Below are positions 3,855-29,462 of a stretch of DNA of 32,000 nucleotides, piece after piece (position 1 is the first letter of the stretch; each line of letters starts with the position of its first letter). Under the pieces are notes generated by a model. It was not told where the DNA came from and ran no database searches. It saw only the letters and a list, made by a program, of their open reading frames with translations. The DNA comes from Aliivibrio fischeri ES114 (GTDB lineage: Bacteria; Pseudomonadota; Gammaproteobacteria; Enterobacterales; Vibrionaceae): assembly GCF_000011805.1 (NCBI RefSeq), contig NC_006840.2; one strand, written 5' to 3'. The position numbers and the translations under genes were made by a program.

Positions 3855-4898
3855 TTGATGAAAGCGGATAATAATTACACATTTGCCATTGGTGTTTCTG
3901 TAGTGCTTCACTTACTGTTAGTGATAGCACTGATATTTGGTAGCGATTTTTCTTTAGATGACAAAGCTAAGCCAAATACGATTCAAGCGGTTGTGATTGA
4001 TCCTGGCACGATAGCTAAGCAAGCAAATCAAATTCGACAAGAACGAGAAAGAGCTGAGCGAGCTGAGCAAGAACGTTTGAAGAAATTAAAACAGCAAGCG
4101 GCACAGTTAGAAAAGAATCGTAAGGCAGAAGAAGAACGTATTCGTCGATTAAAAGAAAAGCAAGTTCAAGAGAAAAAAGCCGCTCGTCAAGCGGAAGAAG
4201 AACGCAAAAAAGCAGTAGCTGAAGCGAAAAAAGAGAAAGAACGTGCAGTAGCTGCAGAGGCTGAGCGTAAACGAAAAGCAGACGCAGCAGCTAAAGCAGA
4301 AGCGGCAAAACAGGCTAAAATTAAAGCGGATAAAGAAAAAGCAGCGAAAGAGGCTGCTAAGAAAGCGCAATTAGAAAAAGAGCGAGCAGCTAAAGCTGAA
4401 GCAGATCGTAAGGCAAAAGAAAAAGCGGCCAAAGCAGAAGCTGAAAGAAAAGCGAAAGCAGAGGCTGAACGAGTAGCTAAAGCCAAAGCAGCAGAAAAAG
4501 CTCGTAAAGAAAAAGCAGCGAGAGCAGAAGCTGAGCGTAAACAGAAAGAAGCAGCATTAAATGATATCTTTGCAGGTTTAGAAGATGAGACGGTTCAGAA
4601 CTCATCAGCTAAACAACAGCATATTGATAATGAAGTTAATCGCCATGCGGCAATTTATACTCAAATGATTCAGCAAAACTTGCTGGTTGATGAGACATAT
4701 GTAGGTAAAAGCTGTCGAGTGAAAATTAAGTTGGCCTCTTCCGGATTACTTTTATCTGTGACCACTTTAGGTGGTGATGCTCAAGTTTGTCGAGCTGCAA
4801 AAACAGCAGTAACAAAAGTGAATGTGTTTCCTATGCCAAAGGATGCAGATGTTGTTGCTAAGTTAACGAATATAAACCTTACCGTTCAACCAGAATAA
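3855..4898 (+). CDS. tolA: Tol-Pal system protein TolA
   Basis: It has an N-terminal TM anchor, a long Lys/Ala/Glu-rich helical domain II and a C-terminal TolA domain III. The start is either TTG 3855 or the adjacent ATG 3858. Confidence 0.9.
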
Positions 4899-12687: not shown

Positions 12688-13074
12688 ATGTATCAGTTAA
12701 CCGTTTTTTATGATGGAACTTGTCCATTGTGTGCAAAAGAGATGAGAGCGCTCAAACAGCAAGACAAAAACAATGTGATAAAAACCATTGATATTTATAG
12801 TGAAGTATTTTCTGAATACTCTAATATTGATCCAAAGGCTGCGAATACGGTTTTACATGCATTAAATCAGAAAGGTGAGCTGATTCTCGGGTTAGATGTA
12901 ACGTATCTCGCATGGAAACTAGTGGGTAAAGGTTGGCTTTATGCTCCTCTCAGATGGCCGGGAATTAAGGTGATCGCAGATTGGTGCTATCTACACTTTG
13001 CTAAAAATCGTTATCGAGTGTCCTATTGGTTAACGGGAGTATCTCGTTGCAATAAAACCAGTTGTTCAAAATAG
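12688..13074 (+). CDS. thiol-disulfide oxidoreductase DCC family protein (DUF393)
   Basis: 128 aa. The N-terminal FYDGTCPLCAKEMRALK carries the family-defining CxxC. Confidence 0.8.
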   Translation: MYQLTVFYDGTCPLCAKEMRALKQQDKNNVIKTIDIYSEVFSEYSNIDPKAANTVLHALNQKGELILGLDVTYLAWKLVGKGWLYAPLRWPGIKVIADWCYLHFAKNRYRVSYWLTGVSRCNKTSCSK

Positions 13075-13105
13075 ATTGTGATGTGACAGAGCTTTACGAG
13101 GAATC

Positions 13106-13816
13106 ATGATGAATATACTCATTGTTGGAGGAAACGGTGGTATAGGTTTTGCGATGATAAAAGAGTGCCTTACTCAGTATTTAGATGCTCATATCCATGC
13201 AACTTATCGTCGAACTAAACCACGGTTTCAGCATGAAAGAGTGAGCTGGTATCAAGTCGATGTTAGCCATGATGATGAAGTGAAATTATTCAGTGAATTA
13301 TTTGATGATATCGATTGGGTGATTAATTGTGCTGGTATGTTACATACATCAGATAAAGGGCCAGAGAAAAATTTAGGCGCATTAGATAGTGCTTATTTTC
13401 AGCAAATAATATTGGCAAATACATTACCAACGTTATTATTAGCCAAATATTTCACCCCAAAACTTAAAAGTACAAATCACCCTAAATTTGCCGTTATTTC
13501 TGCGAAAGTAGGCAGCATTTCAGACAATGAATTTGGGGGATGGTATAGCTATAGAGCATCAAAAGCAGCGTTAAATATGTTCATTAAAACCATGTCAATT
13601 GAATGGCGAAGAAGTATGAAAAATGGTGTGGTATTAGCTCTTCACCCGGGAACTACAGACACTGCATTGTCTAAGCCATTTCAAGCAAACGTTCCGCAAG
13701 ATAAATTATTTTCACCAGAAAAAGTAGCATGTGATCTTATTGGGTTGATGAAATCTAGTTCACCTCAAGATAGTGGTAAGTTTTTGGCTTATAATGGCGA
13801 AACTCTACCTTGGTAA
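13106..13816 (+). CDS. SDR family oxidoreductase (C-factor-like short-chain dehydrogenase)
   Basis: Glycine-rich NAD(P) motif in ILIVGGNGGIGFAM. Catalytic YxxxK in YSYRASKAALN. HPGTTDT follows the active site. Confidence 0.85.
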   Translation: MMNILIVGGNGGIGFAMIKECLTQYLDAHIHATYRRTKPRFQHERVSWYQVDVSHDDEVKLFSELFDDIDWVINCAGMLHTSDKGPEKNLGALDSAYFQQIILANTLPTLLLAKYFTPKLKSTNHPKFAVISAKVGSISDNEFGGWYSYRASKAALNMFIKTMSIEWRRSMKNGVVLALHPGTTDTALSKPFQANVPQDKLFSPEKVACDLIGLMKSSSPQDSGKFLAYNGETLPW

Positions 13817-14021
13817 TAAATCAGTTACTTTGCAACAGATCGATACATCACCATGCTTTACTCAGTCTACGTTTACAGTGTTATATCTATGAGCTCTCAC
13901 CAACCAAAAGATTATTCTTTATTTAATTTCTATTTACCTATCAAGCTTCTTAATAACAGCGTAGGATTAGACTAACTTTAGCTAAAATCAGGCTTGCACT
14001 CCGGTGCTTTAAGATAAAATC

Positions 14022-15380
14022 ATGAAACTAACTGAAAAACCGCTGCTTAATAACGCCTTACTTATTTCTATTTGTACACCGCAATTTAAAGGTGAGGAAG
14101 CCAAACAATCCTTGGCTGAACTTGCTCGCTTGGTGACAACCTTAGGTTTTAAAGTTGTTGGAACGCAATCTCAAAAGCAAACCTCTACGCAAAAGATGAG
14201 TGTGCTAGGTGCTGGGAAATTGGCAGAGATCGCACACATCACAGGTAATCAAGGAGAGGGTACGGATGCCGATACCGAAGATTTCTTTGATGAAACTGAT
14301 TTTGATGATATTCCTTCAGAGAACTTACCGTTTGGTTGTGCTGATGTTGTTGTCTTTGATTGTGATTTAAGTCCATCTCAACTGCGTAATGTTGAGAATC
14401 AACTTGGTGTTCAGGTATACGATCGTACGGGTATTATCATTGAAATATTCAGCCGCCATGCTCGTACACGTACCGCTCGTCTTCAAGTTGAGATGGCTCG
14501 ACTGAATTATGTCGCCCCAAGATTGAGAGAATCTTCAATCGGTGACAGTGAACGCCAAATGGGTAAAGGTTCAGGTGAGACAAGTTTAGAGCTGGACCGT
14601 CGTAAAGTTCGTGATCAATTAGCTGAATTACGTCGAGAGTTAGACAGTGTTCAAGATGAACTGAAAGGTAGACGAGCTCAGCGTTCTGAACTGTTTTGTG
14701 TTGCTTTAGTGGGTTACACCAATGCTGGTAAATCTTCAATGATGCGTGCATTAACAGGCAGTGAAGTGCTTGTTGAAAATAAATTATTCGCAACGTTAGA
14801 TACAACAGTGCGTGCGCTGTATCCAGAAACTCAACCTCGAATTCTTGTTTCAGATACCGTAGGGTTCATAAAAAAATTACCCCATGATTTGGTCGCTTCT
14901 TTCCACTCAACGTTAGCAGAAGCGCACGATGCTTCATTATTACTGTATGTAGTAGATGCCTCAGATCCAACCTTTAGAACTCAACTTGATGTTGTTCATG
15001 AGGTACTTGGAGAAGTGGGTGTTGATGGCATTGATAAGTTATTAGTTTTAAATAAATCTGATCAACTGACTCCTGAGCAGCAACAAGCATTAATGGAAGA
15101 GTTTCCTGATGCGATGATGACATCAACTCGTAATCCACTTGATGTAGCCAAATTGCATCAATATATCGTTAACGCTTCAGAGAAAGGGATGATCGAAGAA
15201 GAACTCATTGTTCCTTATGATGCAAAAGGCATAATGGGAGAGATCCGCTCAAGCATGAGTGTCGTGAATGAAGAATATGATTACGATCATATGAAGTTGA
15301 CGGTACGCTCTAGTGCAATTGATTTAGCAAGATTAAAAAAGCTGATGTCGAATGTATTAAACGAAAATGATAGTGAGTGA
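14022..15380 (+). CDS. hflX: HflX-family ribosome-associated GTPase (probable paralogue, with an acidic insertion in the N-terminal domain)
   Basis: It aligns with E. coli HflX throughout: DRTGIIIEIFSRHARTRTARLQVEMA, GSGETSLELDRR, G1 GYTNAGKSS, LFATLDTT, G3 DTVGFIKKLPHDLVASF and G4 NKSD. Confidence 0.9.
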   Translation: MKLTEKPLLNNALLISICTPQFKGEEAKQSLAELARLVTTLGFKVVGTQSQKQTSTQKMSVLGAGKLAEIAHITGNQGEGTDADTEDFFDETDFDDIPSENLPFGCADVVVFDCDLSPSQLRNVENQLGVQVYDRTGIIIEIFSRHARTRTARLQVEMARLNYVAPRLRESSIGDSERQMGKGSGETSLELDRRKVRDQLAELRRELDSVQDELKGRRAQRSELFCVALVGYTNAGKSSMMRALTGSEVLVENKLFATLDTTVRALYPETQPRILVSDTVGFIKKLPHDLVASFHSTLAEAHDASLLLYVVDASDPTFRTQLDVVHEVLGEVGVDGIDKLLVLNKSDQLTPEQQQALMEEFPDAMMTSTRNPLDVAKLHQYIVNASEKGMIEEELIVPYDAKGIMGEIRSSMSVVNEEYDYDHMKLTVRSSAIDLARLKKLMSNVLNENDSE

Positions 15381-15458: not shown

Positions 15459-15556
15459 TGTCATGAATTTACTGTTTGATGATTAAATACTTATTTTGTT
15501 CAAATGCTAGAGCTGATAATGTTAGGAGGTATTTAGTTTATTTGAGGCCTGTCTTT

Positions 15557-16102
15557 ATGTTGTCAGAATGGCAAAATCACAAAGCGCAATTACGTAATTA
15601 TGTTTACAAACGAGTGGATGATGCGAGTGCGGTAGATGACATTCTTCAAGATGTGTACATAAAAGCCAGTAGCAATTTGCATCAGCTAAAATCCAAAGGC
15701 AGCTTGAAAGGGTGGTTATACAAAATAGCCTATAACACCATCATGGATTTTTACCGTGATAAGCTACCTTATGATGAGTTACCGGAAGATTTAGTCGCAG
15801 AAGATGAAGATGCTGTAGAGGAGTCTCGGAAAGAAATTGCAGAGTGTATGCGCCCGTTAATCGATGAGCTTCCTGATAAATACAGTGTTCCTCTTCGTTT
15901 AGCGGAATTAGACGGTATTCCTCAGCAAGAAATTGCAGATAAATTAGGATTATCATTGTCGGGAGCTAAAAGTCGAATTCAGCGCGGGAGAGTTAAGTTT
16001 CGCGAAAATCTTATGACTTGTTGTGATTTTGAAATTAATGATGGGGGAATGGTTACAGGTTATACCCCTAAGAAAACTAACTGCTCTTCACCTAAGAGAT
16101 AA
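15557..16102 (+). CDS. sigZ: ECF-type RNA polymerase sigma factor, SigZ-like, with Cys-containing C-terminal tail
   Basis: Region 2 (DILQDVYIKA...GWLYKIAYNTIMDFYRD). Region 4 HTH (LPDKYSVPLRLAELDGIPQQEIADKLGLSLSGAKSRIQRGR). The tail is LMTCCDFEINDGGMVTGYTPKKTNC. I prefer ATG 15557 (181 aa) over the ORF-track start at 15476. Confidence 0.8.
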   Translation: MLSEWQNHKAQLRNYVYKRVDDASAVDDILQDVYIKASSNLHQLKSKGSLKGWLYKIAYNTIMDFYRDKLPYDELPEDLVAEDEDAVEESRKEIAECMRPLIDELPDKYSVPLRLAELDGIPQQEIADKLGLSLSGAKSRIQRGRVKFRENLMTCCDFEINDGGMVTGYTPKKTNCSSPKR

Positions 16103-16126
16103 TCTTACTCTCTTTTTTTCAACTGG

Positions 16127-16155
16127 ACGGTAAATAAACGCATTATTTACCGTTT
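16127..16155 (+). terminator. candidate terminator after sigZ
   Basis: 11-bp AT-rich stem ACGGTAAATAA/TTATTTACCGT with a 5-nt loop, but only a short TTT tail. Confidence 0.4.
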
Positions 16156-16258
16156 GTCTAATTACTTTATCTTTTTTCATTTTATTGAAATTTTTTTGCG
16201 TCTTTTTCTTTATCTGTTCGTCTTCAAGTTGTTAGAAACATTTTTATGAAGAACATAA

Positions 16259-17857
16259 ATGAAAAATACAGATGTGAAATACTTAGAACCTCATATTCTT
16301 TCTTTTTTAAACAATGAACATGCCATGAATACACTGCATGACATTCGACGTGGAATTGAAAGAGAATTGATCCGTACGACGCCTGAAAGCCGCATTTCAA
16401 ACTTACCTCATCCAGAAGAGTTAGGCTCTGCTTTAACGCACCCTTACATCACAACTGATTTTGCGGAAGCACAATTAGAGTTGGTGACTCCTGCAATGAC
16501 GGAAAGAAAGACGACGTTTGATTCGTTAGCTTCTTTACATCATTTTGTCGCTACTCGTCTGCCTGACAATGAAATCATGTGGGGAGCAAGTATGCCACCT
16601 GAGCTGCCAAGTGATGATGAGATTAAGATCGCAGCGTATGGAACATCAAATGCTGGATTACATAAGGTACGTTACCGTGAAGGATTGGCGAATCGTTATG
16701 GAAAAAGAATGCAACTAATTTCAGGTATTCATTATAATTTTTCATTACCAGATTCTTTTTGGGAAATCTTACATTCACATATTGGTAGTGAATTACTCTT
16801 AAATGATTTCATTTCAGAACGTTATTTTCATTTGATTCGTAATGTCCTACGTAATGGTTGGATTATTCCATATTTATTTGGTGCATCACCTGCGGTAGAT
16901 AAAAGTTATTTAATCAATCAAGAACACGCTTTAAATCTTCTTGATGACGAGACTTATTATTTGCCATGGGCGACATCTTTACGCTTGAGTAACATGGGAT
17001 ATAGCAGTAATGAGCAATCTTTTTATCCAACAAGCTTTAATAGTAAGCAAGAGTATTTGGCTGATTTATGTCACGCATTAACGACACCAAGTGAACGCTA
17101 TACTCATTTAAATGGAGATCAGCAACTGAATGCATCGGTCTTACAATTAGAAAATGAGCTATACGGTTCTATAAGGCCTAAAATCGTTAGTGATCAATTA
17201 CGTCCTTTGTATGCGATGTGTCATCACGGTATTCAATATATTGAACTACGTAGTCTAGATAACAATCCACTATTACCATTAGGTATCAGTGAAGATCAAA
17301 GCTATTTTTTAGATGCTTTTCTCACATATAACGCCTTAGCACCAAGCCCTGAATTAACAGATTCTGAACGAGAGTTAATTGCTCGTCGTCAAGAGTTAGT
17401 GGCAACAGAAGGGAGAAAAGAAGGGCTATTATTACCAACGCTACAAGGTGATAGAGAGCTTAAAGAGCTTGGCTTGACTTTATTATCATCAATGATGCCA
17501 GTTGCGTCATGGTTAGATAATGTGTTTGCTACAGAAGGACATAAACAAGGCATTGAGCGTGAGCAGGTTAAGTTTGTAGATAGTAATTTAACGCCATCAG
17601 CGCAAATATTAACAATAATGAAAGATGAAAAACTGTCATATAAACACGTAACACAAAAATTATCTGAAATGCATTTTAAACAGCATAAAGATGTCGAAAT
17701 TAATGAAGAAGAAATGGTAGGTTTATCCCGATTAGTTGGCGAGTCTTTAGCTAAACAGCAAAGAATGGAGACGTTACAAGATATGAGTTTTGATGAATTT
17801 ATTCAGAAAAAAAACGATTTGCAGTGTGATTGTGAGATAGAAGAGGTCGTAGCGTAA
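16259..17857 (+). CDS. gshA: glutamate--cysteine ligase (GshA family; probably a second, divergent copy)
   Basis: 532 aa. It aligns with E. coli GshA in RGIERE, HPEELGSALTHPYITTDFAEAQLELVTP, AAYGTSNAG, YREGLANRYG and ISGIHYNFSLP. It carries a C-terminal extension ending ...DLQCDCEIEEVVA. Confidence 0.9.
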   Translation: MKNTDVKYLEPHILSFLNNEHAMNTLHDIRRGIERELIRTTPESRISNLPHPEELGSALTHPYITTDFAEAQLELVTPAMTERKTTFDSLASLHHFVATRLPDNEIMWGASMPPELPSDDEIKIAAYGTSNAGLHKVRYREGLANRYGKRMQLISGIHYNFSLPDSFWEILHSHIGSELLLNDFISERYFHLIRNVLRNGWIIPYLFGASPAVDKSYLINQEHALNLLDDETYYLPWATSLRLSNMGYSSNEQSFYPTSFNSKQEYLADLCHALTTPSERYTHLNGDQQLNASVLQLENELYGSIRPKIVSDQLRPLYAMCHHGIQYIELRSLDNNPLLPLGISEDQSYFLDAFLTYNALAPSPELTDSERELIARRQELVATEGRKEGLLLPTLQGDRELKELGLTLLSSMMPVASWLDNVFATEGHKQGIEREQVKFVDSNLTPSAQILTIMKDEKLSYKHVTQKLSEMHFKQHKDVEINEEEMVGLSRLVGESLAKQQRMETLQDMSFDEFIQKKNDLQCDCEIEEVVA

Positions 17858-17861
17858 TTTA

Positions 17862-19661
17862 ATGAATATTTTGTGGAAATTGCGCGGTTACATCAAGATG
17901 TTTTCACGCCAGTACATTATCGCCATCATTGCATTGCAAGTGGTGGCTTTATTAAGTTTGGTACCTTCTTGGTTGATTGGCCGCATTGTTGATAGCGTCA
18001 GTAGTAATGAGCTTACAGTACCATATTTGTTAGTCCACATTGGTGGTATTGTCATTTCAGCGATTGCTATGTATGGCTTACGTTATGTATGGCAAAGTCA
18101 GTTATACGGTGCTTCGATTGCTATTGCGAAAGTACTACGTCGAGATTTATTTAGAAAGTTTTCAATGCTGTCACCGTCGTTTTATTCTCGTCGCAGTACG
18201 GGCGATTTAATGGCTCATGCAACGAATGATTTGAATGCAGTTGAAGAAGCGACAGGTATGGGGATCATGACTTTAGTTGATTCCTTTATTGCTGGCTTAA
18301 CTGTAATTTTCGGAATGATTTTTATCGTAAGTGGTGAGCTTACTGCAGTGGCATTATTGCCATTTCCATTTTTGGTTTATATCACTAAGCATTATGGTAT
18401 TAATTTACATAAAACATTTGGTCGTGCACAAGCCAGTTTTGCTCATTTAAATGAAGAAGCTCGTGAAACTGTTTCGGGGATTCGTGCGGTTCGTTCTCAT
18501 GGAATTGGGCAACGTCAAGAGCTACGTTTTGGTAAAACACTGGATGAAACTCTGGAAGCTAATTTAGCTGTTGCAAAAGTGGATGCCGCATTCGCACCGA
18601 CAATTCAACTTATTTACGGCTTATCGTTTGTTATTTCATTGGCTTATGGTGCGTGGTTAATTAACCATGATCAGATTTCAGTGGGGTTATTTACGACGTT
18701 TACGTTATATCTTGGCCAATTGTTAGGACCATTTTTACAATTTGGCTGGCAATTTAATGTTTTCCAACGAGGTAGTACGTCATGGAAACGTTTAGATGCA
18801 CTTTTTTCAGAAAAAGAAGAAGTGGTTGAAGGTAGTGTTACATTACCTTCCGATGCGAAAGCGTCATTGGATATCAATATAACTTCATTTTCTTATCAAA
18901 ATACGAACCGACGGGCACTTGAAAGAATAAATATGACGGTTGATGAAGGTGGATTTATAGGTATTACAGGGCCAACTGGTAGCGGAAAAAGTACCTTGTT
19001 GCATTTGATTCTAAGACAGTTTGAGTTAGAACATTCATCAAACATAAGTATTGATAGTTATCCAGTGCAATCATTAACTTTTCATTCTTTGCGTAGCAAG
19101 ATTGCATGGGTTCCGCAAAAGCCGTTCTTATTTTCAGGGTCCATTGCTGAAAATATCGCATTAGCTAAACCAGAGGCCACGGAAGCGCAAATCCAATACG
19201 TGGCAGAAATGGCAGGAATTAAAAACGAAATTGATACCATGCCTGACGGGTTTAATACTGAGTTACGAGAAGGTGGTGGAAACCTTTCTGGTGGACAGCG
19301 CCAAAGGTTAACGCTTGCAAGAGCCTTATTATCTGATGCGGATATTTTGCTGTTAGATGATCCGTTCAGTGCATTAGATATTAAAACTGAAGTGATTATT
19401 CGTCGAAATTTAAAAGAAAATTACAACCATAAAACCATTTTGTTAGTAACACAACGTTTACCTAATTTAATCGAAGCTGATCGAATTTTTGTATTAAATG
19501 AAGGGCAAATTGAAGAGCAAGGGTCACATCATGACTTACTGGCTAATCAAGGTTGGTATTCGATGGTTTACCAGAGACAAAGTCAACTAAACACCGTTAT
19601 TGGAGAGATCTCAATTCCTAATGGTACAGAGATGAAGAAACTAGGAGATCATAATGAGTAA
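17862..19661 (+). CDS. ABC exporter half-transporter (TMD-NBD), MdlA-like, with degenerate catalytic residues
   Basis: Six-TM N-terminal domain. Walker A GPTGSGKST and signature LSGGQRQR are canonical. Walker B reads ILLLDDPFSALD (Asp in place of the catalytic Glu) and the H-loop position reads VTQRL (Gln in place of His). It starts 4 nt after gshA. Confidence 0.9.
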   Translation: MNILWKLRGYIKMFSRQYIIAIIALQVVALLSLVPSWLIGRIVDSVSSNELTVPYLLVHIGGIVISAIAMYGLRYVWQSQLYGASIAIAKVLRRDLFRKFSMLSPSFYSRRSTGDLMAHATNDLNAVEEATGMGIMTLVDSFIAGLTVIFGMIFIVSGELTAVALLPFPFLVYITKHYGINLHKTFGRAQASFAHLNEEARETVSGIRAVRSHGIGQRQELRFGKTLDETLEANLAVAKVDAAFAPTIQLIYGLSFVISLAYGAWLINHDQISVGLFTTFTLYLGQLLGPFLQFGWQFNVFQRGSTSWKRLDALFSEKEEVVEGSVTLPSDAKASLDINITSFSYQNTNRRALERINMTVDEGGFIGITGPTGSGKSTLLHLILRQFELEHSSNISIDSYPVQSLTFHSLRSKIAWVPQKPFLFSGSIAENIALAKPEATEAQIQYVAEMAGIKNEIDTMPDGFNTELREGGGNLSGGQRQRLTLARALLSDADILLLDDPFSALDIKTEVIIRRNLKENYNHKTILLVTQRLPNLIEADRIFVLNEGQIEEQGSHHDLLANQGWYSMVYQRQSQLNTVIGEISIPNGTEMKKLGDHNE

Positions 19662-21471
19662 AGAACAAGCACAGCAACCAAGTGATATGTTCTTGTTTAA
19701 ACGATTGGTCGCTTATTCTCTTCCACATAAAATGCGATTTATTGTCGCGTTTATGATGCTATCGGTAGCGATAAGTGCTGAAATGGCGATTCCATGGATG
19801 GCGAAGATTATCCTTGATGACGTTATCGTACCGCAGCAATTTGAATGGCCACATCTGATAGGGCTTGTTAGCTTAGTAATGGTGTTTTATGTGATATCGG
19901 CGTTATTTACTTATTTGCAAGCGGTGTCATTTCGTCACAGTGCCTTGTTAGTGATTAATGATGTGAGAAAACAGTTGTTTAATCATGTGCTGAATTTTCC
20001 AATCAGCACCTTTGATAAATTATCCGCTGGTAAATTGGTTTCTTATATCACTAATGATACTGAATCGATGCGTGATATGTTTGTTTCAACGATACCTACA
20101 ATCATTCAAGGTAGCTTACGCATCATTGCGATATTTATTGCGATAGCGATCTTGGATTGGCGCTTGATGTTATTGAGCTTAGTTTTGATCCCGATACTAC
20201 TGACAACAATGCATTTGTATCGAAAAATCTCAATGCCAGTGTTTAATGGGATTAGAGAGCAGGTCAGTAATATTAATGGACGTATTAACGAATCGTTACA
20301 AGGAATGTCACTGATTCAGGCGTTTAATCAAGAAAAAGTGTTTAAAGATAAGTTTGAAAAAGAAAACCAACGTTGGTTTGAGTTTAGAACGAAATCAATC
20401 GCGATTGATAGCTTAATGCTTATTCCATTAACACGTTTAGTCTCCAATTTAACGGCTGTTGGTATTGTAGCGTGGTTCGCTAATGCATCATTAACGACAG
20501 TGGTTGAAATCGGAACGCTATATGCATTTTTAAATTATATAGAACGCTTTTTTGACCCATTCCGACAACTTTCAATGGAGTTACGTAAATTACAAGTGGC
20601 GACTGTTGCATCAAAACGAGTGTTTGAGTTGCTAGATGAAAAATCAGAACAGAATCGTTACCCTCAAGAATTTGCAGAGTTAGTCACACCACATGATATT
20701 GAGTTTAAGAATGTGAATCTAAGTTATGATGAGGAACATTTGGTTTTATCTGATGTGAGTTTTGTAGCTAAAGGTGGGAAGTTTACGGCGATAGTAGGTC
20801 ATACGGGCAGTGGAAAAAGCTCAGTAATCAATTTGCTTATGAGATTCTACCAACATCAAAAAGGCTCCATCTTAATTGGAGGCCAACCGATTGAATCACT
20901 GCCAGAAATTCAATTGAGAAAAATGTTTGGTTTAGTATCTCAAGACCCAACTATATTTAGTGGCTCGATAATTGAAAATATTGATTTATCACATTCAACC
21001 CCAGATAAAGAAAAGGTAATTGCAGCAGCGCAGCAGGTAAAAGCACATCAATTTATTAATCGATTAACTAATGGTTATGAGCATCAACCAGGGCATGGCG
21101 GCGCATCACTTTCAGTGGGAGAAAGGCAGCTTTTAGCATTAGCTCGTGCTATTTCGCACCAACCAAGTATTTTCTTATTGGATGAAGCGACTGCAAATAT
21201 TGATAGTGAAACGGAAGAAGCAGTAAAAGAAGCATTAGAAAATATTCAAGATGGGAGAACAGTAATCATGGTCGCTCATCGATTATCAACGATAAAAAAT
21301 GCGGATCAAATTTTGGTCATGAATAAAGGAAAAGTGGTTCAAAGTGGCACGCATGACGAGCTTATTATTCAAGATGGTGATTACCGAAGTTTATATTTAG
21401 CGCAAAAAGCGCAAGAAGAAAATGAACATCAGAATAGCACACTTGGTTTAGCTGGAATTAACGCAGCTTGA
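19654..21471 (+). CDS. ABC exporter half-transporter (TMD-NBD), MdlB-like, with consensus catalytic residues and a deviant signature
   Basis: Walker A GHTGSGKSS, Walker B IFLLDEATANID and H-loop VAHRL are all canonical. The signature is LSVGERQ. It overlaps the upstream ABC gene by 8 nt. Confidence 0.9.
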   Translation: MSKEQAQQPSDMFLFKRLVAYSLPHKMRFIVAFMMLSVAISAEMAIPWMAKIILDDVIVPQQFEWPHLIGLVSLVMVFYVISALFTYLQAVSFRHSALLVINDVRKQLFNHVLNFPISTFDKLSAGKLVSYITNDTESMRDMFVSTIPTIIQGSLRIIAIFIAIAILDWRLMLLSLVLIPILLTTMHLYRKISMPVFNGIREQVSNINGRINESLQGMSLIQAFNQEKVFKDKFEKENQRWFEFRTKSIAIDSLMLIPLTRLVSNLTAVGIVAWFANASLTTVVEIGTLYAFLNYIERFFDPFRQLSMELRKLQVATVASKRVFELLDEKSEQNRYPQEFAELVTPHDIEFKNVNLSYDEEHLVLSDVSFVAKGGKFTAIVGHTGSGKSSVINLLMRFYQHQKGSILIGGQPIESLPEIQLRKMFGLVSQDPTIFSGSIIENIDLSHSTPDKEKVIAAAQQVKAHQFINRLTNGYEHQPGHGGASLSVGERQLLALARAISHQPSIFLLDEATANIDSETEEAVKEALENIQDGRTVIMVAHRLSTIKNADQILVMNKGKVVQSGTHDELIIQDGDYRSLYLAQKAQEENEHQNSTLGLAGINAA

Positions 21472-21495
21472 ATTATTGAATTTAGAGTTATAAAA

Positions 21496-22956
21496 ATGAA
21501 TACAGAAAAAAAACTGTTGGTTTCTCAACAAATCATTGAAGATGCATGTGAATGGGCAATCATGCATGGGGTAGCATTCAGACAAGCAGATAATACGGCA
21601 AGACATTGTCCATTTAGTATCGCTCCTATGAGTATCGAGCGTGATGTGTATCAACATTTGTTGAGAGTGACTCCGTTAATCACTAAATTAATCCATAACG
21701 TTTCTGAAGATCATGATTTTCTCCAATCATCATTAAGTGATATGGCAAAAGCTGATCCGTTCTTTGGTTTATTAATGTCATTACATCAACAACTGCATGG
21801 TGACGCTCATAATAAACTTGTTGCTGAGCGTCAGCCGTTATTATTGATGCGAACTGATTTTATGGATGATCGTCAACACGGTGCAAAAGTCATTGAATTT
21901 AATGGTATTGCAGCTGGCATGGGGCCTTTTGGTCAACGAGCGGCAGAACTTCATGCGTTTATGAAACAGCAATGGCCAAATACGTATCACCAATGGATTG
22001 AAGATGCATCGGCTGTGCCTGCTGAAAATCAAGGTTTAGAACAACTTGCATATGGTATTGCAGCGGCAGCGAAATCGGTAAATGCGCATTTTGGTAATGA
22101 AAGCAAACCGACATTCTTGATGGTTGTACAAAAGAATGAAGATAACGTGTATGACCAACATTTGTTGGAAGTTGAACTCCAAAAGCAAGGTGTTCGAACG
22201 GTTCGAAGAACGTTTGAACAATTAAGAACTCAGCTATCTAGTGGTGATAATAAACGTTTATTGCTAGAAAACGTTGGTGCTGTTGATGTGGTTTATTTAC
22301 GTGCAGGCTATCAGTATGAGGATTATTTCTCAGCAGAGCTTAATGAGCCTATTTGTTGTCATACGTTGAGCCAAACAAGGTTATTTATTGAACAGCATCA
22401 TGTTGCCGTTAATGCAACGATTAGTCAGCAATTAGCGACCAGTAAATCAATGCAAATGTTGTTAACTATGATGCCAGAAAGTGAATATTCTCGTTGGGGA
22501 TTGAGTATAGATGAAGCATCATTGGTTAAAAGCGTTTTAGCTGATATGAAACCGATTAATACCGATACTATTCATTGGTTTACCCTTAATGCAAATAAGT
22601 CTGAATGGGTATTAAAAAATCAAGGTGAAGGTGGTGGTCATTGCGTTTTTGGTGATGATATTACCCAAAAGCTTAATCAATTAGATGCTGCAGAATATGA
22701 TGCATGGGCGTTAATGCAGCGCTTATACCCTCATGAACGTGATACACCAACGGTTGCGGTTCGAGATGGTGAACAGACTCTTGTAAATGATTTAGTGAGC
22801 GAAATAGGGCTGTTTACCGCTTATTACAATGGTAAGCCGGTCACTGAGCTGAATGGTTATGCGGGTTATTTAATTCGTAGTAAGCCTGCCAGTGAAAATG
22901 AAGGTGGAATTCATAGCGGAAAAGGCATTTTAGATTCTCTGGTTTTAGTGGATTAA
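21496..22956 (+). CDS. eukaryotic-type glutathione synthetase (GSS/Gsh2-like ATP-grasp)
   Basis: 486 aa. It aligns along its whole length with human GSS as I remember it: VIEFNGIAAG vs IEINTISASFG, TVRRTFEQL vs VIRRTFEDI, VVYLRAGY vs VVYFRDGY, LKNQGEGGGHCVFGDDI vs LKPQREGGGNNLYGEEM, SEIGLF vs SELGIF, and GYLIRSK...EGG vs GHLLRTK...DGG. It is not the ~315-aa bacterial GshB type. Confidence 0.85.
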   Translation: MNTEKKLLVSQQIIEDACEWAIMHGVAFRQADNTARHCPFSIAPMSIERDVYQHLLRVTPLITKLIHNVSEDHDFLQSSLSDMAKADPFFGLLMSLHQQLHGDAHNKLVAERQPLLLMRTDFMDDRQHGAKVIEFNGIAAGMGPFGQRAAELHAFMKQQWPNTYHQWIEDASAVPAENQGLEQLAYGIAAAAKSVNAHFGNESKPTFLMVVQKNEDNVYDQHLLEVELQKQGVRTVRRTFEQLRTQLSSGDNKRLLLENVGAVDVVYLRAGYQYEDYFSAELNEPICCHTLSQTRLFIEQHHVAVNATISQQLATSKSMQMLLTMMPESEYSRWGLSIDEASLVKSVLADMKPINTDTIHWFTLNANKSEWVLKNQGEGGGHCVFGDDITQKLNQLDAAEYDAWALMQRLYPHERDTPTVAVRDGEQTLVNDLVSEIGLFTAYYNGKPVTELNGYAGYLIRSKPASENEGGIHSGKGILDSLVLVD

Positions 22957-23085
22957 CTTTTCCTTAATACAAACTGAACCAAACATTAAAATAGCTCACA
23001 AAAAATACGAGTCTCAATTGTGGACTCACACTCAGTTTATGCATTTAAGTACCTTATGGTCATTGAATAAATGAGGTGTTTTTTA

Positions 23086-23319
23086 ATGGCTGATATTTTT
23101 GTTTGGCTCGGTGTTGTAGTGTTTCTCGTTGGCGGTGCTTTGCTAGTCTTAGAGGCTTTTAGCCAGAGTATTGTGTGGGGGATGTTGTGCATCATTTTTA
23201 ATCCTATTGCGATTGTCTTTTGTAGTATGCATTGGAAAGATGCCAAATACCCTTTTGCCATTCAGAGTATAGGGCTTGTTATCACATTATTAAGTTTATT
23301 GTTACAGTCTAATTATTGA
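23086..23319 (+). CDS. small hypothetical membrane protein (about 77 aa, 3 predicted TM segments)
   Basis: Strongly hydrophobic, helix-like segments. GAGG lies about 8 nt upstream of ATG 23086. I prefer it to the overlapping antisense ORF 23037..23261. I recognised no family. Confidence 0.45.
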   Translation: MADIFVWLGVVVFLVGGALLVLEAFSQSIVWGMLCIIFNPIAIVFCSMHWKDAKYPFAIQSIGLVITLLSLLLQSNY

Positions 23320-23385
23320 TTTTCACTTTATTCATACAATGACTTTCGGTACATTGAGTGAATCGTTAATAAAGAGAACGGAAAC

Positions 23386-23808
23386 ATGTTTGAAGTAAAA
23401 AATGTTGCATATATAAATAAAGAAAAAGAAGAAATCCGTTCTATTCGAGATTCGGTTTTTATTCAAGAGCAAGAGATCGATCCTGAAATTGAATTTGATG
23501 GTTTAGACTCAAGTGCTGTTCATGCGCTTGTGTATTGTGATGGAGAAGCGGTTGGAACTGGACGCATTTTAAGTGATGGTCATATTGGACGCATTGCGAT
23601 TTTAAAAGCGTATCGCTCTAAAGGTTTAGGTTCTAAAATTGTATTATCACTTATAGAAGAAGCGGTAAGCCAAAACTATGAGCGTGTATATTTAGGCTCT
23701 CAAAAACACGCTATTCAGTTTTATGAAAAACTAGGTTTCCGACCTTATGGCGAAGAGTTTATTGAAGCCGATATTCCACACCTATCAATGGAAAAAATGA
23801 TTAAGTAG
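23386..23808 (+). CDS. GNAT family N-acetyltransferase
   Basis: 140 aa. Acetyl-CoA motif A in IGRIAILKAYRSKGLGSKIV, and the C-terminal FYEKLGFRPYGE typical of GNATs. Confidence 0.85.
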   Translation: MFEVKNVAYINKEKEEIRSIRDSVFIQEQEIDPEIEFDGLDSSAVHALVYCDGEAVGTGRILSDGHIGRIAILKAYRSKGLGSKIVLSLIEEAVSQNYERVYLGSQKHAIQFYEKLGFRPYGEEFIEADIPHLSMEKMIK

Positions 23809-23819
23809 TCAATTGTTTA

Positions 23820-23858
23820 AAGGTTCTTATTAAAAAGTGATAAGAACCTTTCCTTTAT
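23820..23858 (+). terminator. terminator hairpin after the GNAT gene (overlaps the 3' end of the convergent reductase gene)
   Basis: AAGGTTCTTAT-(9 nt)-ATAAGAACCTT perfect 11-bp stem followed by a T-rich tract. Confidence 0.55.
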
Positions 23859-28385: not shown

Positions 28386-28748
28386 TTATTTCTGGCTGCT
28401 ACGAAAGAAATCCCAAGCATTAACTTTCTCACCCGTCTTTAACACGCATGTGCTGTCATTTAAGTTGTATGTGCCTTCTTGCTCAACACAATATGTTGTG
28501 GCAGGATTTGGTTTGCCAATAGGCTTAGTCATGGATTGTTTATGGTTACGGTAGTATTCCCAAGCGTTAACTACATCGCCATTGCCAAGTGTACAGTTAC
28601 CTGTATCTAAGTCATAAGTTCCGCGCTCTGCACAAAATGTTGCTGCTGGATTGGTTGCATTTGCTTTAGTTGGTTCTGGAGTTTCAGATGAACTGCACGC
28701 AGCTAATGTTAATAGCATCGAAACCGTAATTACTGTTTTTTTAAGCAT
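28386..28748 (-). CDS. lipoprotein with two tandem DUF333 domains
   Basis: Lipobox LAAC. It contains an internal duplication: NPAATFCAERGTYDLDTGNCTLGNGDVVNAWEYYR and NPATTYCVEQEGTYNLNDSTCVLKTGEKVNAWDFFR. Each copy matches the DUF333 pattern NPAxxYC...G...C.L.dG....W.ffR. Confidence 0.75.
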   Translation of the reverse strand: MLKKTVITVSMLLTLAACSSSETPEPTKANATNPAATFCAERGTYDLDTGNCTLGNGDVVNAWEYYRNHKQSMTKPIGKPNPATTYCVEQEGTYNLNDSTCVLKTGEKVNAWDFFRSSQK

Positions 28749-28775
28749 TAGAGTGTCCTTTGAATTATGATGTTG

Positions 28776-29165
28776 TTATTGGCAATCTTGAGTCATGCTG
28801 CCTTGCTGAGCAGGTTGAGTCATTTGGTATTGACCTTTAAGGCTGCGATACACACGAGTATTCCAGACTTGGCCATCATCAAGCTCAAAATCAATCGCGT
28901 AATTAATGCCATTCACTACCTGAGTTTTTACATCTAATATTTGTTTAAGTTTAGCTGATGTATTCATCATACTTAAAACGTGCTCAACCGCTTCTTTTGC
29001 TTCTGGTGTTACGCTAGACGTGACCCAGCCACCAGCCATATTATTATCTACATTACAAATTGGATTGATATTATCTGATGAAATCGCTGGTGTTTTTTCT
29101 GATTGTATTGAACACCCTGCGATAAATAATGCTGAGGTTATTGCAATTACTACTGATTTATTCAT
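28776..29165 (-). CDS. cystatin-like lipoprotein
   Basis: ATG 29165 with GGAG upstream, and lipobox IAGC. The mature part shows the cystatin layout: a GG near the N-terminus (MAGGW), a helix, the QxVxG loop (TQVVNGINY) and a later Trp loop (GQVW). Confidence 0.55.
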   Translation of the reverse strand: MNKSVVIAITSALFIAGCSIQSEKTPAISSDNINPICNVDNNMAGGWVTSSVTPEAKEAVEHVLSMMNTSAKLKQILDVKTQVVNGINYAIDFELDDGQVWNTRVYRSLKGQYQMTQPAQQGSMTQDCQ

Positions 29166-29462
29166 GGTGACTCCATGTATGGTAAGAATTTTTCTTAAGT
29201 TTAATCTAATCCTTAAGAGACAGAATTCCAAACTAATCGTATTTTTTTAATCATTAATCTCATTTTCAATGCAGTTTTTTATCTCAAGTTAGATGTCTAA
29301 AGCATTTATTCATTATTTATCACCTCAATGAATGAGTGATTATTTTATGGCAGACTTCACATCTTTTTGTGTTTCTGGTTAAAGATATAGGGAAGGTTCT
29401 ATTATTTTGTAATAAACATTATTAGCATTGGTCGGTTGTTTCTAAATTGTAAATGGTTATTT

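Follow-up and report, generated by a model that had tools for sequence, protein, structure and literature searches.

A predicted SigZ-controlled operon of Aliivibrio fischeri that joins two glutathione-type ligases to a pair of ABC half-transporters

A stretch of 32,000 nucleotides from contig NC_006840.2 of Aliivibrio fischeri ES114 (hereafter the window) carries on its plus strand a gene for a SigZ-type extracytoplasmic function (ECF) sigma factor, followed by four closely packed genes for a GshA-family glutamate-cysteine ligase, two ATP-binding cassette (ABC) half-transporters and an ATP-grasp ligase with the fold of eukaryotic-type glutathione synthetase (GS), called here the GS-like ligase. 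We propose that marine Gammaproteobacteria conserve a SigZ (ECF238) regulon and that this locus is its most elaborate variant. A first-pass annotation of the same DNA had described the four genes as a self-contained module that makes a thiol tripeptide for secretion, and had named sigZ as its obvious candidate regulator. Our map of open reading frames (ORFs) reproduces all of its coordinates for the five genes and the sizes of the junctions, i.e., a 4-nt gap between gshA and ABC1, an 8-nt overlap of ABC1 with ABC2, and a 24-nt gap between ABC2 and the GS-like gene. The gene identities were borne out as well, SigZ and GshA by scores above equivalog cutoffs and the ABC and GS domains by Pfam. 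The features discussed are the following:

15557..16102, plus strand: sigZ, ECF sigma factor of the SigZ/ECF238 type (Pfam and NCBIfam)
16125..16155, plus strand: terminator-like hairpin that closes the sigZ transcription unit (folding against shuffled sequences)
16196..16226, plus strand: predicted SigZ-dependent promoter (motif match)
16259..17857, plus strand: gshA paralogue (gshA2; glutamate-cysteine ligase), first gene of the probable operon (TIGR01434, PF04262)
17862..19661, plus strand: ABC half-transporter 1 (ABC1), a transmembrane domain joined to a nucleotide-binding domain (ABC_membrane and ABC_tran; motifs from the translation)
19654..21471, plus strand: ABC half-transporter 2 (ABC2; Pfam; motifs from the translation)
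21496..22956, plus strand: GS-like ATP-grasp ligase, eukaryotic-type glutathione synthetase fold (PF03917 and PF03199)
23071..23808, plus strand: ORF for an 82-residue membrane protein and gene for a GNAT acetyltransferase, possible read-through, outside the conserved system

The weak terminator assumed behind sigZ takes the form of a hairpin with a 13-bp stem and a 5-nt loop (-13.2 kcal/mol, z = -4.45 against shuffles), which is followed by UUUGUCUAAUU. At the other end, the boundary is as uncertain as had been stated, because no significant structure lies 3' of the GS stop codon at 22956 (z = -1.0), none was found up to the membrane ORF and the GNAT gene, and a strong hairpin first appears 3' of the GNAT gene at 23819-23851. 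The membrane ORF and the GNAT gene may be co-transcribed by read-through. Among 80 loci fetched for comparison, the two are kept only in a conspecific one (L001), and they are therefore placed outside the conserved system. Scans for sigma-70 promoters and terminators gave fewer promoter-like matches than shuffled sequences and were uninformative on the operon start. The tight junctions, together with a single promoter-like motif 36 nt upstream of gshA and the lack of internal sites or terminators, indicate that gshA2, ABC1, ABC2 and the GS-like gene very probably form one operon, in agreement with the earlier proposal.

The sigma factor scores above both NCBIfam equivalog cutoffs (NF007215, 251.9 bits, cutoff 212; TIGR02959, 246.6 bits, cutoff 168.65) and contains the Pfam domains Sigma70_r2 and r4_2. 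An alternative TTG start at 15476 was discarded as unsupported, the family model aligning from residue 2 of the ATG form. Its cysteines comprise C97 in the linker, the vicinal pair C155-C156 and C176 in the tail. Across 40 SigZ orthologues from the loci, C97 and C155 are each conserved in 38 and C156 in all 40, and a further tail Cys at a variable position is present in nearly all of them. No anti-sigma factor gene adjoins sigZ, its neighbours being a GTPase gene and gshA. The sigma factors of group ECF238 work without anti-sigma factors and carry a Cys-containing C-terminal extension of about 20 residues, which is thought to be a metal or redox sensor; the members CorE and CorE2 sense metals (PMC7826278; PMC8999054). 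The SigZ of B. subtilis was assigned to ECF238 along with CorE2 and was called essentially unstudied (PMC7826278).

CorE and CorE2 of M. xanthus (ECF238, former ECF44) resemble the window protein as ECF sigma factors free of an anti-sigma factor, with a short Cys-rich C-terminal extension and Cys in the linker. They differ by the CxC motif within the linker joining sigma2 to sigma4, which is required for the CorE-like class (PMC8999054), whereas the window SigZ has a single linker Cys (AECMRP), as does the non-ECF44 majority of ECF238; because the CxC motif is absent, we regard it as a SigZ/ECF238 member and not as a strict CorE-type protein. The targets also differ, since CorE acts on copper oxidase and ATPase genes, whereas the window operon holds thiol synthesis genes. 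In Streptomyces, SigR-RsrA governs a thiol-stress regulon in which mycothiol synthesis is induced, and there too an ECF sigma factor under the control of a Cys-based sensor increases the synthesis of a low-molecular-weight thiol. That sensor is, however, a separate zinc-containing anti-sigma factor, while the window SigZ bears the cysteines within its own chain and is accompanied by an exporter.

The bipartite-word search of upstream regions returned one dominant pattern, refined to TTTGCGTCTTTT-N11-(G/T)CGTCTTA, with spacing fixed in 62 of 65 sites and an end that usually lies 32-47 nt 5' of the start codon. The motif was found 5' of gshA in 19 of 22 loci, of patB in 7 of 9, of sigZ in 9 of 35, and of the GS gene in 21 of the 40 loci where this gene does not stand behind ABC genes, including V. 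splendidus and V. harveyi loci without a sigZ gene close by. Further sites lie 5' of ABC1 in loci lacking gshA, and of genes for an SDF transporter, a rhodanese and a Zn-dehydrogenase. The word pair CGTCT-N15-CGTC occurs 82 times on both strands of the 1.57 Mb of fetched DNA, compared with 2-9 times in shuffles, and about 81 of the 82 sites, a count that includes the inspection of 12 sites missed by the ORF caller, lie 25-150 nt upstream of gshA, GS, sigZ, patB, ABC1, SDF, rhodanese or Zn-dehydrogenase genes.

When the 32-kb window was scanned for CGTCTT-N14-CGTCT with at most one mismatch (chance expectation 0.22), a single site was found at 16199-16223, located 36 nt before the gshA ATG (TTTGCGTCTTTTTCTTTATCTGTTCGTCTTC), and none before ABC1, ABC2, the GS-like gene, the small ORF or the GNAT gene. 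The elements of the predicted promoter are a -35-like GCGTC, a 16-nt spacer and a -10-like CGTCTT; this spacer geometry and a CGTC -10 element are typical of ECF promoters. The lone site before gshA supports a single gshA-ABC-ABC-GS transcript with sigZ as the candidate regulator, and the latter suggestion gains strength from the motif marking gshA, standalone GS genes and sigZ across genera. That SigZ itself reads the motif is what we infer from this co-occurrence.

Recurrent additional partners of the system are a PatB-family C-S lyase (341 bits, at the cutoff), a CoA-disulfide reductase (630 bits), a rhodanese and an SDF-family symporter. The first three relate to thiol and sulfur metabolism, and the best NCBIfam matches of the SDF transporter lie far below cutoff. 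Such company allows an alternative in which SigZ senses cyst(e)ine overload or persulfide and disulfide stress and the regulon buffers or removes reactive sulfur: the ligases sink cysteine into tripeptide and the ABC pair exports the overflow. The motif-bearing genes for all four partners speak in its favour; CoA-disulfide reductase and rhodanese together resemble persulfide reductase systems, and the ArsR family, members of which accompany a sister clade described below, also includes persulfide sensors. We nevertheless consider a sulfur signal of this kind unlikely, since the characterised ECF238 members sense metals, the CC+C tail of the sister-clade ArsR and the accompanying ArsP permease resemble arsenical systems, and the SDF transporter has only those sub-cutoff matches.

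Several loci vary in their sigma factor genes. In two of them (L015 and L050) SigZ paralogues flank the operon, one 5' of gshA and one 3' of GS, and the second SigZ gene is followed by a motif-bearing Zn-dehydrogenase gene and patB. In the Enterovibrio loci and some from Photobacterium, the sole SigZ-like gene is a divergent one that lies 3' of GS (27-33% identity), and its product retains the CC motif. In a Pseudoalteromonas locus (L087:4925-8461), genes for an ECF sigma factor and a GST lie on one strand and hexapeptide-transferase and GS-like genes on the other, with a near-match to the SigZ motif (GCGTCC...CGTCTT) in the intergenic region.

The survey took one genome per species and detected GS-like relatives in 316 GTDB species, and synteny was established for the 80 fetched loci by tblastn and ORF clustering. 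Loci were found in Aliivibrio, Vibrio, Photobacterium, Enterovibrio, Shewanella, Moritella, Psychromonas, Paraglaciecola, Ferrimonas, Endozoicomonas and other genera, and their architectures are distributed as follows:

GS-like gene alone: 33 of 80 loci
SigZ and GS-like genes: 13 of 80 loci
ABC-ABC-GS, without gshA: 10 of 80 loci
gshA pseudogene with ABC-ABC-GS: 2 of 80 loci (L005 and L029)
gshA-ABC-ABC-GS: 22 of 80 loci, 14 of them with a close SigZ gene directly upstream

This is a nested series with the GS-like gene as its constant element and the window module as its largest member. The four-gene arrangement is not due to chance, because the same order recurs in 22 of the 80 related species loci, and in most of these the junctions of ABC2 with GS and of ABC1 with ABC2 are equally tight. 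The neighbourhood survey called for by the first-pass annotation has thus recovered the order gshA-ABC-ABC-GS along with smaller nested forms; the self-contained module stands as a recurrent arrangement but not as a fixed unit, since the GS-like core is often under predicted SigZ control without an exporter. In Aliivibrio sp. S4MY1 (L004) the flanks are as in its relatives, sigZ, gshA and both ABC genes are missing, and the GS-like gene alone is kept. Other recurrent neighbours in the loci (GNAT, DUF2913, DUF3332, di-haem peroxidase and BCCT genes) offered no functional clue.

GshA2 matches its family models over its full length (TIGR01434, 476.5 bits, cutoff 393.3; PF04262, 468.6 bits). A phmmer alignment to 1V4G showed that it keeps residues E27, E67, Y131, R132, Q144, H150, R235, Y241, Y300, E328 and R330 of E. 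coli GshA, which we take to be the catalytic, Mg and cysteine-pocket residues. Its closest match is an A. fischeri protein with 98% identity, and the closest database relatives of the window proteins come from A. fischeri at 98-99% identity. The gene is a pseudogene in two species (L005 and L029) and absent from 56 of the 80 related loci, so on sequence grounds it is unlikely to be the housekeeping copy. Sansalvadorimonas sp. 2012CJ34-2 encodes two distinct GshA proteins with 52% and 44% identity to the window GshA2, and a GshA of the operon type therefore coexists with another copy in at least one genome. Throughout the survey gshA2 was never met apart from the ABC pair (22 of 22 loci). The truncated gshA genes of A. 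finisterrensis and P. frigidiphilum (L005:6087-6440 and L029:5726-6151) still have a SigZ-type motif upstream.

The GS-like ligase has the ATP-grasp architecture of GS (PF03917, 208 bits over residues 11-484; PF03199, 79 bits) and matches the GS and homoglutathione synthetase chains in the PDB with E = 1e-47 to 1e-36, and its score for the TIGR01986 equivalog is below cutoff (254.1 vs 329.8 bits). Its catalytic, ATP and Mg set (R119, E134, N136, K374, E378, G379-381, R461 and K463) is invariant in 78 orthologues, as are the Glu-holding side chains Q212, E215, N217, Q221, R269 and Y272. In GS, gamma-Glu-Cys is bound at its Cys by one Arg side chain and two serine backbones, and at its Glu by six side chains, namely R, E, two Q, N and Y (PMC5919673). 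The two serine positions of the dipeptide site are Ala and Gly in the window protein and are likewise invariant in the orthologues. A new acceptor was considered on account of this exchange and ruled out, since the serines contact the substrate via their backbone and residues as small as Ala and Gly allow such contacts. Because R119, the six Glu-holding side chains and the ATP, Mg and catalytic residues are all kept, gamma-Glu-Cys is very probably the acceptor.

The substrate loop reads GGIHSG, compared with GGVAAG in canonical GS and GGVLPG in homoglutathione synthetase, and thus lacks the glycine-associated Ala-Ala pair, and the glycine-rich loop reads EGGGHC instead of the canonical EGGGNN. 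The resulting lid residues H382-C383 and H473-S474, which are Asn-Asn and Ala-Ala in canonical GS, are invariant in the 78 orthologues, and these four residues together could form a metal-binding or substrate-selecting site. Homoglutathione synthetase and the GS-like effectors of nematodes also combine the GS fold with altered substrate-loop residues, and they demonstrate that proteins of this fold can come to make a different product. The Glu-binding half of the dipeptide pocket is lost in the nematode effectors and fully retained in the window ligase, and homoglutathione synthetase has Leu-Pro in the loop where the window ligase has His-Ser.

These exchanges raise the question of whether the product is glutathione at all. 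If the His-Ser loop led the enzyme to add another residue in place of glycine, it would make a distinct gamma-Glu-Cys-X thiol with a biology of its own, e.g., a metal ligand. Consistent with this are the difference of GGIHSG from the loops of all canonical GS and of homoglutathione synthetase, the invariance of H473-S474 and of the neighbouring H382-C383, the loop His held in common with the ArsR-linked clade, and the score below the TIGR01986 cutoff. Moreover, a bacterial GshB is already expected in these genomes, so that a second true GS would be redundant. On the other hand, isozymes that are induced by stress and make the same product are common, and glycine is still preferred by a nematode clade whose loop residues are altered (PMC5919673), so loop changes alone do not predict a new third residue. 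We therefore treat a non-glutathione product as a tentative option, rather doubtful though not far-fetched; should it prove right, a new low-molecular-weight thiol would be at hand. The earlier wording, glutathione or an analogue, suits the combination of retained gamma-Glu-Cys-binding residues with a specificity loop of His-Ser in place of Ala-Ala, and we keep it, the predicted product being glutathione or a gamma-Glu-Cys-X analogue. The 'GshB' of P. damselae chromosome II, which is 38-fold induced at low salt (PMC10308900), was examined as a possible orthologue and rejected, as it adjoins a QEGLA-motif protein and belongs to a different system.

A second bacterial group of GS-like proteins has the IAAGMGPF motif and the loop His in common with the window-type clade, and this loop His is the only one of the four lid residues that it keeps. 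Nine of its contexts were inspected (L081-L086 and L088-L090, from Reinekea, Bowmanella, Pseudidiomarina, Aliikangiella, Aliiglaciecola and four others). A divergently transcribed gene for an ArsR-family regulator stands next to the GS-like gene in all nine, and a gene for an ArsP_1-family permease lies immediately 5' of the GS-like gene in seven. The C-termini of the ArsR proteins show a conserved ECC pair plus a tail Cys, and TPFCSCS occurs in the permeases; the Cys-pair motif of ArsP-type permeases is typical of toxicant efflux. The layout of these ArsR cysteines resembles the C-terminal Cys95-Cys96 and Cys102 site with which the A. ferrooxidans ArsR (AfArsR) binds As(III), and in S. putrefaciens an ArsR-controlled arsP responds to methylarsenite. 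The sister clade, with its divergent CC-tailed ArsR and ArsP_1 permease (TPFCSCS), has the very pair of regulator and permease that makes up the ArsR-ArsP organoarsenical resistance units of S. putrefaciens and C. jejuni. In the literature searched, the known ars units are described without a GS-like gene, and in the window the places of ArsR and ArsP are taken by SigZ and an ABC pair.

The tails of ArsR and SigZ have a common layout of a vicinal Cys-Cys pair and a distal Cys, although the proteins are unrelated. A GS-like ligase is thus found twice under a regulator with a vicinal-Cys tail and beside an efflux protein, each time built from unrelated parts, and from this analogy comes the best indication that thiol-reactive toxicants, possibly metalloids, are what the system responds to. 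By the same analogy, the ArsP permease and the Cys-tailed ArsR of the sister clade point to a detoxification response rather than to the delivery of a redox buffer.

Both ABC proteins of the window are complete half-transporters with ABC_membrane and ABC_tran domains, and neither reaches the cutoffs of the SmdA/SmdB or CydD/CydC models. The best NCBIfam model is SmdA for ABC1 (565 bits, cutoff 845) and SmdB for ABC2 (482 bits, cutoff 746), so the pair is not assigned to SmdAB/MdlAB, and the scores are 250 and 280 bits with the CydD model (cutoff 435) and 234 and 220 bits with the CydC model (cutoff 329). The closest solved chains are BmrC/YheI for ABC1 (420 bits) and BmrD/YheH for ABC2 (432 bits), and MRP1 is among the PDB matches of ABC1. 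According to the translations, ABC1 has degenerate ATP-site residues (Walker B LLLDDP, H-loop VTQRL), and ABC2 combines a consensus Walker B (LLDEAT) and H-loop (AHRL) with a degenerate signature (LSVGE). The two are therefore predicted to form an asymmetric heterodimer of the BmrCD/TM287-288 type with one degenerate and one consensus ATP site. The BmrCD pump of B. subtilis (YheI/YheH) has this asymmetric design and is the closest solved structure for both halves, but it is a multidrug pump that is induced by drugs and unconnected with thiol synthesis.

One consequence could be that the two arms of the operon are uncoupled, with the ABC pair working as a general toxicant or multidrug exporter that is co-regulated with thiol-replenishing enzymes whose products are not exported. 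The closest characterised relatives, BmrCD and SmdAB, are indeed multidrug exporters, the permease of the sister clade is ArsP-like and ArsP exports trivalent organoarsenicals themselves, not thiol conjugates, and in most genomes the GS-like gene does without an exporter. The linkage of ABC2 with GS is, however, strictly conserved and tight, and the confinement of gshA2 to exporter loci (22 of 22) would be unexpected unless export consumes thiol. This confinement favours a real coupling over mere co-regulation, and we hold the uncoupled arrangement to be improbable.

If the arms are coupled, the exported compound might be the tripeptide itself, made for the periplasm or the medium as a redox buffer or reductant supply, with the ABC pair carrying the free reduced peptide in the manner of CydDC, which carries glutathione and cysteine in E. 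coli. Secretion was the purpose that the first-pass annotation had read from the gene order, and a part of its argument stands: both ligation steps bracket the exporter in one probable transcript, and gshA2 occurs only with the ABC pair, as a drain on the cytoplasmic pool would select. Nevertheless, the scores of the ABC proteins (220-280 bits) fall far short of what the CydD and CydC models demand (329-435), and SmdAB and BmrCD fit them better. In most cases the GS-like gene has no exporter beside it, in the sister clade this place is taken by a small ArsP-type permease with the Cys-pair motif of toxicant efflux, and a Cys-sensor sigma factor suggests an induced stress response, not a constitutive supply. 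With no specific relation to CydDC and an ArsP-type sister clade, secretion becomes one possibility among others, and one that we would not expect to hold. The E. coli pathway of GshA, GshB and CydDC agrees with the window in the GshA-family first step and in a heterodimeric ABC exporter in a thiol context. It differs in the second step, which is catalysed by bacterial GshB and not by an enzyme of the eukaryotic-type GS fold, in its unlinked genes, whereas the window ligases share one operon with the exporter, and in the exporter, as the window pair is not CydDC.

The interpretation that we prefer, with a probability of roughly 55%, is an operon for thiol-reactive stress that is driven by SigZ and in which increased tripeptide-thiol synthesis is combined with an ABC pair that expels conjugates or the thiol itself. 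In this scheme sigZ would be transcribed alone, and the linker Cys, the vicinal Cys-Cys and the tail Cys of its product would serve as a built-in sensor. A thiol-reactive cue, i.e., a soft metal or metalloid (As(III), Cd, Cu, Zn) or disulfide or persulfide stress, would activate SigZ, and the activated sigma factor would direct RNA polymerase to 16196-16226, giving gshA2-abc1-abc2-GS-like as one transcript. GshA2 would then make extra gamma-Glu-Cys, to which the GS-like ligase would add the third residue, most likely glycine, yielding glutathione, or possibly another amino acid, and the asymmetric heterodimeric exporter would remove toxicant-thiol conjugates, or the thiol, from the cytoplasm. 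The whole scheme would be a bacterial counterpart of the eukaryotic detoxification by 'glutathione plus GS-X pump', in which Ycf1 and MRP1 export As(GS)3 and Cd(GS)2 and which is represented in Leishmania by gamma-GCS and MRPA. The two would agree in their logic, by which more thiol is made and an ABC pump removes metal(loid)-thiol conjugates, and they have in common the eukaryotic-type GS fold. The differences are that the parts in the window are gathered in one bacterial operon under an ECF sigma factor, and that the ABC proteins are half-transporters of the ABCB/BmrCD type and not of the ABCC type, with conjugate transport here a proposed function.

A number of observations weigh against the SigZ-driven stress operon. 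The 32-kb window scan did not find the motif 5' of sigZ itself in A. fischeri. Both halves of the motif are one word (CGTCTT) repeated 20 nt apart, which is unusual for a sigma-factor promoter, and a direct-repeat-binding regulator other than SigZ could therefore read it. The GS-like gene occurs without an exporter in 46 of 80 loci, export thus being no inherent part of what it does, and the ABC pair has no specific similarity to known exporters of thiols or conjugates, its best solved match being the multidrug pump BmrCD. No canonical ars, cad or cop genes lie next to the SigZ-type loci in the fetched neighbourhoods, and full-text literature searches on eukaryotic-type bacterial GS, Vibrio sigZ, V. 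fischeri gshA/gshB, and ArsP with GS yielded no study of the cluster.

Every part of the system is of a known kind; the novelty lies in the operon of ligases and ABC genes, in the predicted promoter and regulon of SigZ, in the nested series of architectures and in the parallel with ArsR/ArsP. A second set of glutathione-type enzymes with an ABC pump, apparently under a Cys-bearing sigma factor that acts through a promoter motif kept by many marine bacteria, suggests an undescribed thiol-based response to stress or toxicants. SigZ-type ECF sigma factors are widespread, yet the literature searched gives them no function; SigZ can now be given a predicted promoter and regulon, together with a physiological theme open to testing. 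In addition, a large bacterial clade of enzymes with the eukaryotic GS fold, present in 316 species, comes into view under regulators of Cys-based sensor families and often linked to exporters. If the coupling is real, the locus would be the first bacterial operon in the literature searched that joins both steps of tripeptide-thiol synthesis to an ABC pump, and it would provide a tractable model for the thiol-based expulsion of metals, metalloids and electrophiles in the genetically accessible squid symbiont A. fischeri.

A bolder extension of the SigZ-driven stress operon, which at present we think very unlikely, would unite both clades: in marine Gammaproteobacteria, vicinal-Cys regulators (SigZ or CC-tailed ArsR) would control a GS-fold ligase that, by virtue of its invariant His-Ser and His-Cys lid residues, makes a non-glutathione gamma-Glu-Cys-X, and this thiol would capture a soft metal or metalloid and be expelled as a complex by a dedicated exporter, either the ABC pair or an ArsP-type permease. 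Such capture and export would be the bacterial equivalent of the eukaryotic GS-X pump or of phytochelatin-HMT1, with a small-molecule product of its own.

The window flanks consist of the core genes cydB, ybgC-tolQRAB-pal-cpoB and nadA. The idea of a mobile island was rejected in view of the core flanking genes (cydB, tol-pal and nadA) and the uniform GC content, which give the region no obvious island character. The strong AT skew (0.36) at 4-5 kb belongs to tolA (3855-4898), which encodes a repetitive linker rich in Lys, Ala and Glu, and is a compositional effect with no separate feature behind it. Directly 5' of sigZ, positions 12688-15380 encode a DCC1-like thiol-disulfide oxidoreductase, an SDR protein (PRK09009 equivalog) and a 452-residue HflX-like GTPase, and the SigZ motif is absent before all three genes. 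The GTPase scores above the TIGR03156 cutoff and below that of PRK11058, and may be a second, divergent HflX. On the other side of the operon, the GNAT protein (23386-23808) has a very weak match to the arsenic-resistance acetyltransferase ArsN2 (27.6 bits, cutoff 125), which probably reflects generic GNAT similarity. Finally, a DUF333 protein adjoins a cystatin-domain protein (35.5 bits) on the minus strand at 28386-29231, and a cystatin-like domain is uncommon in bacteria.

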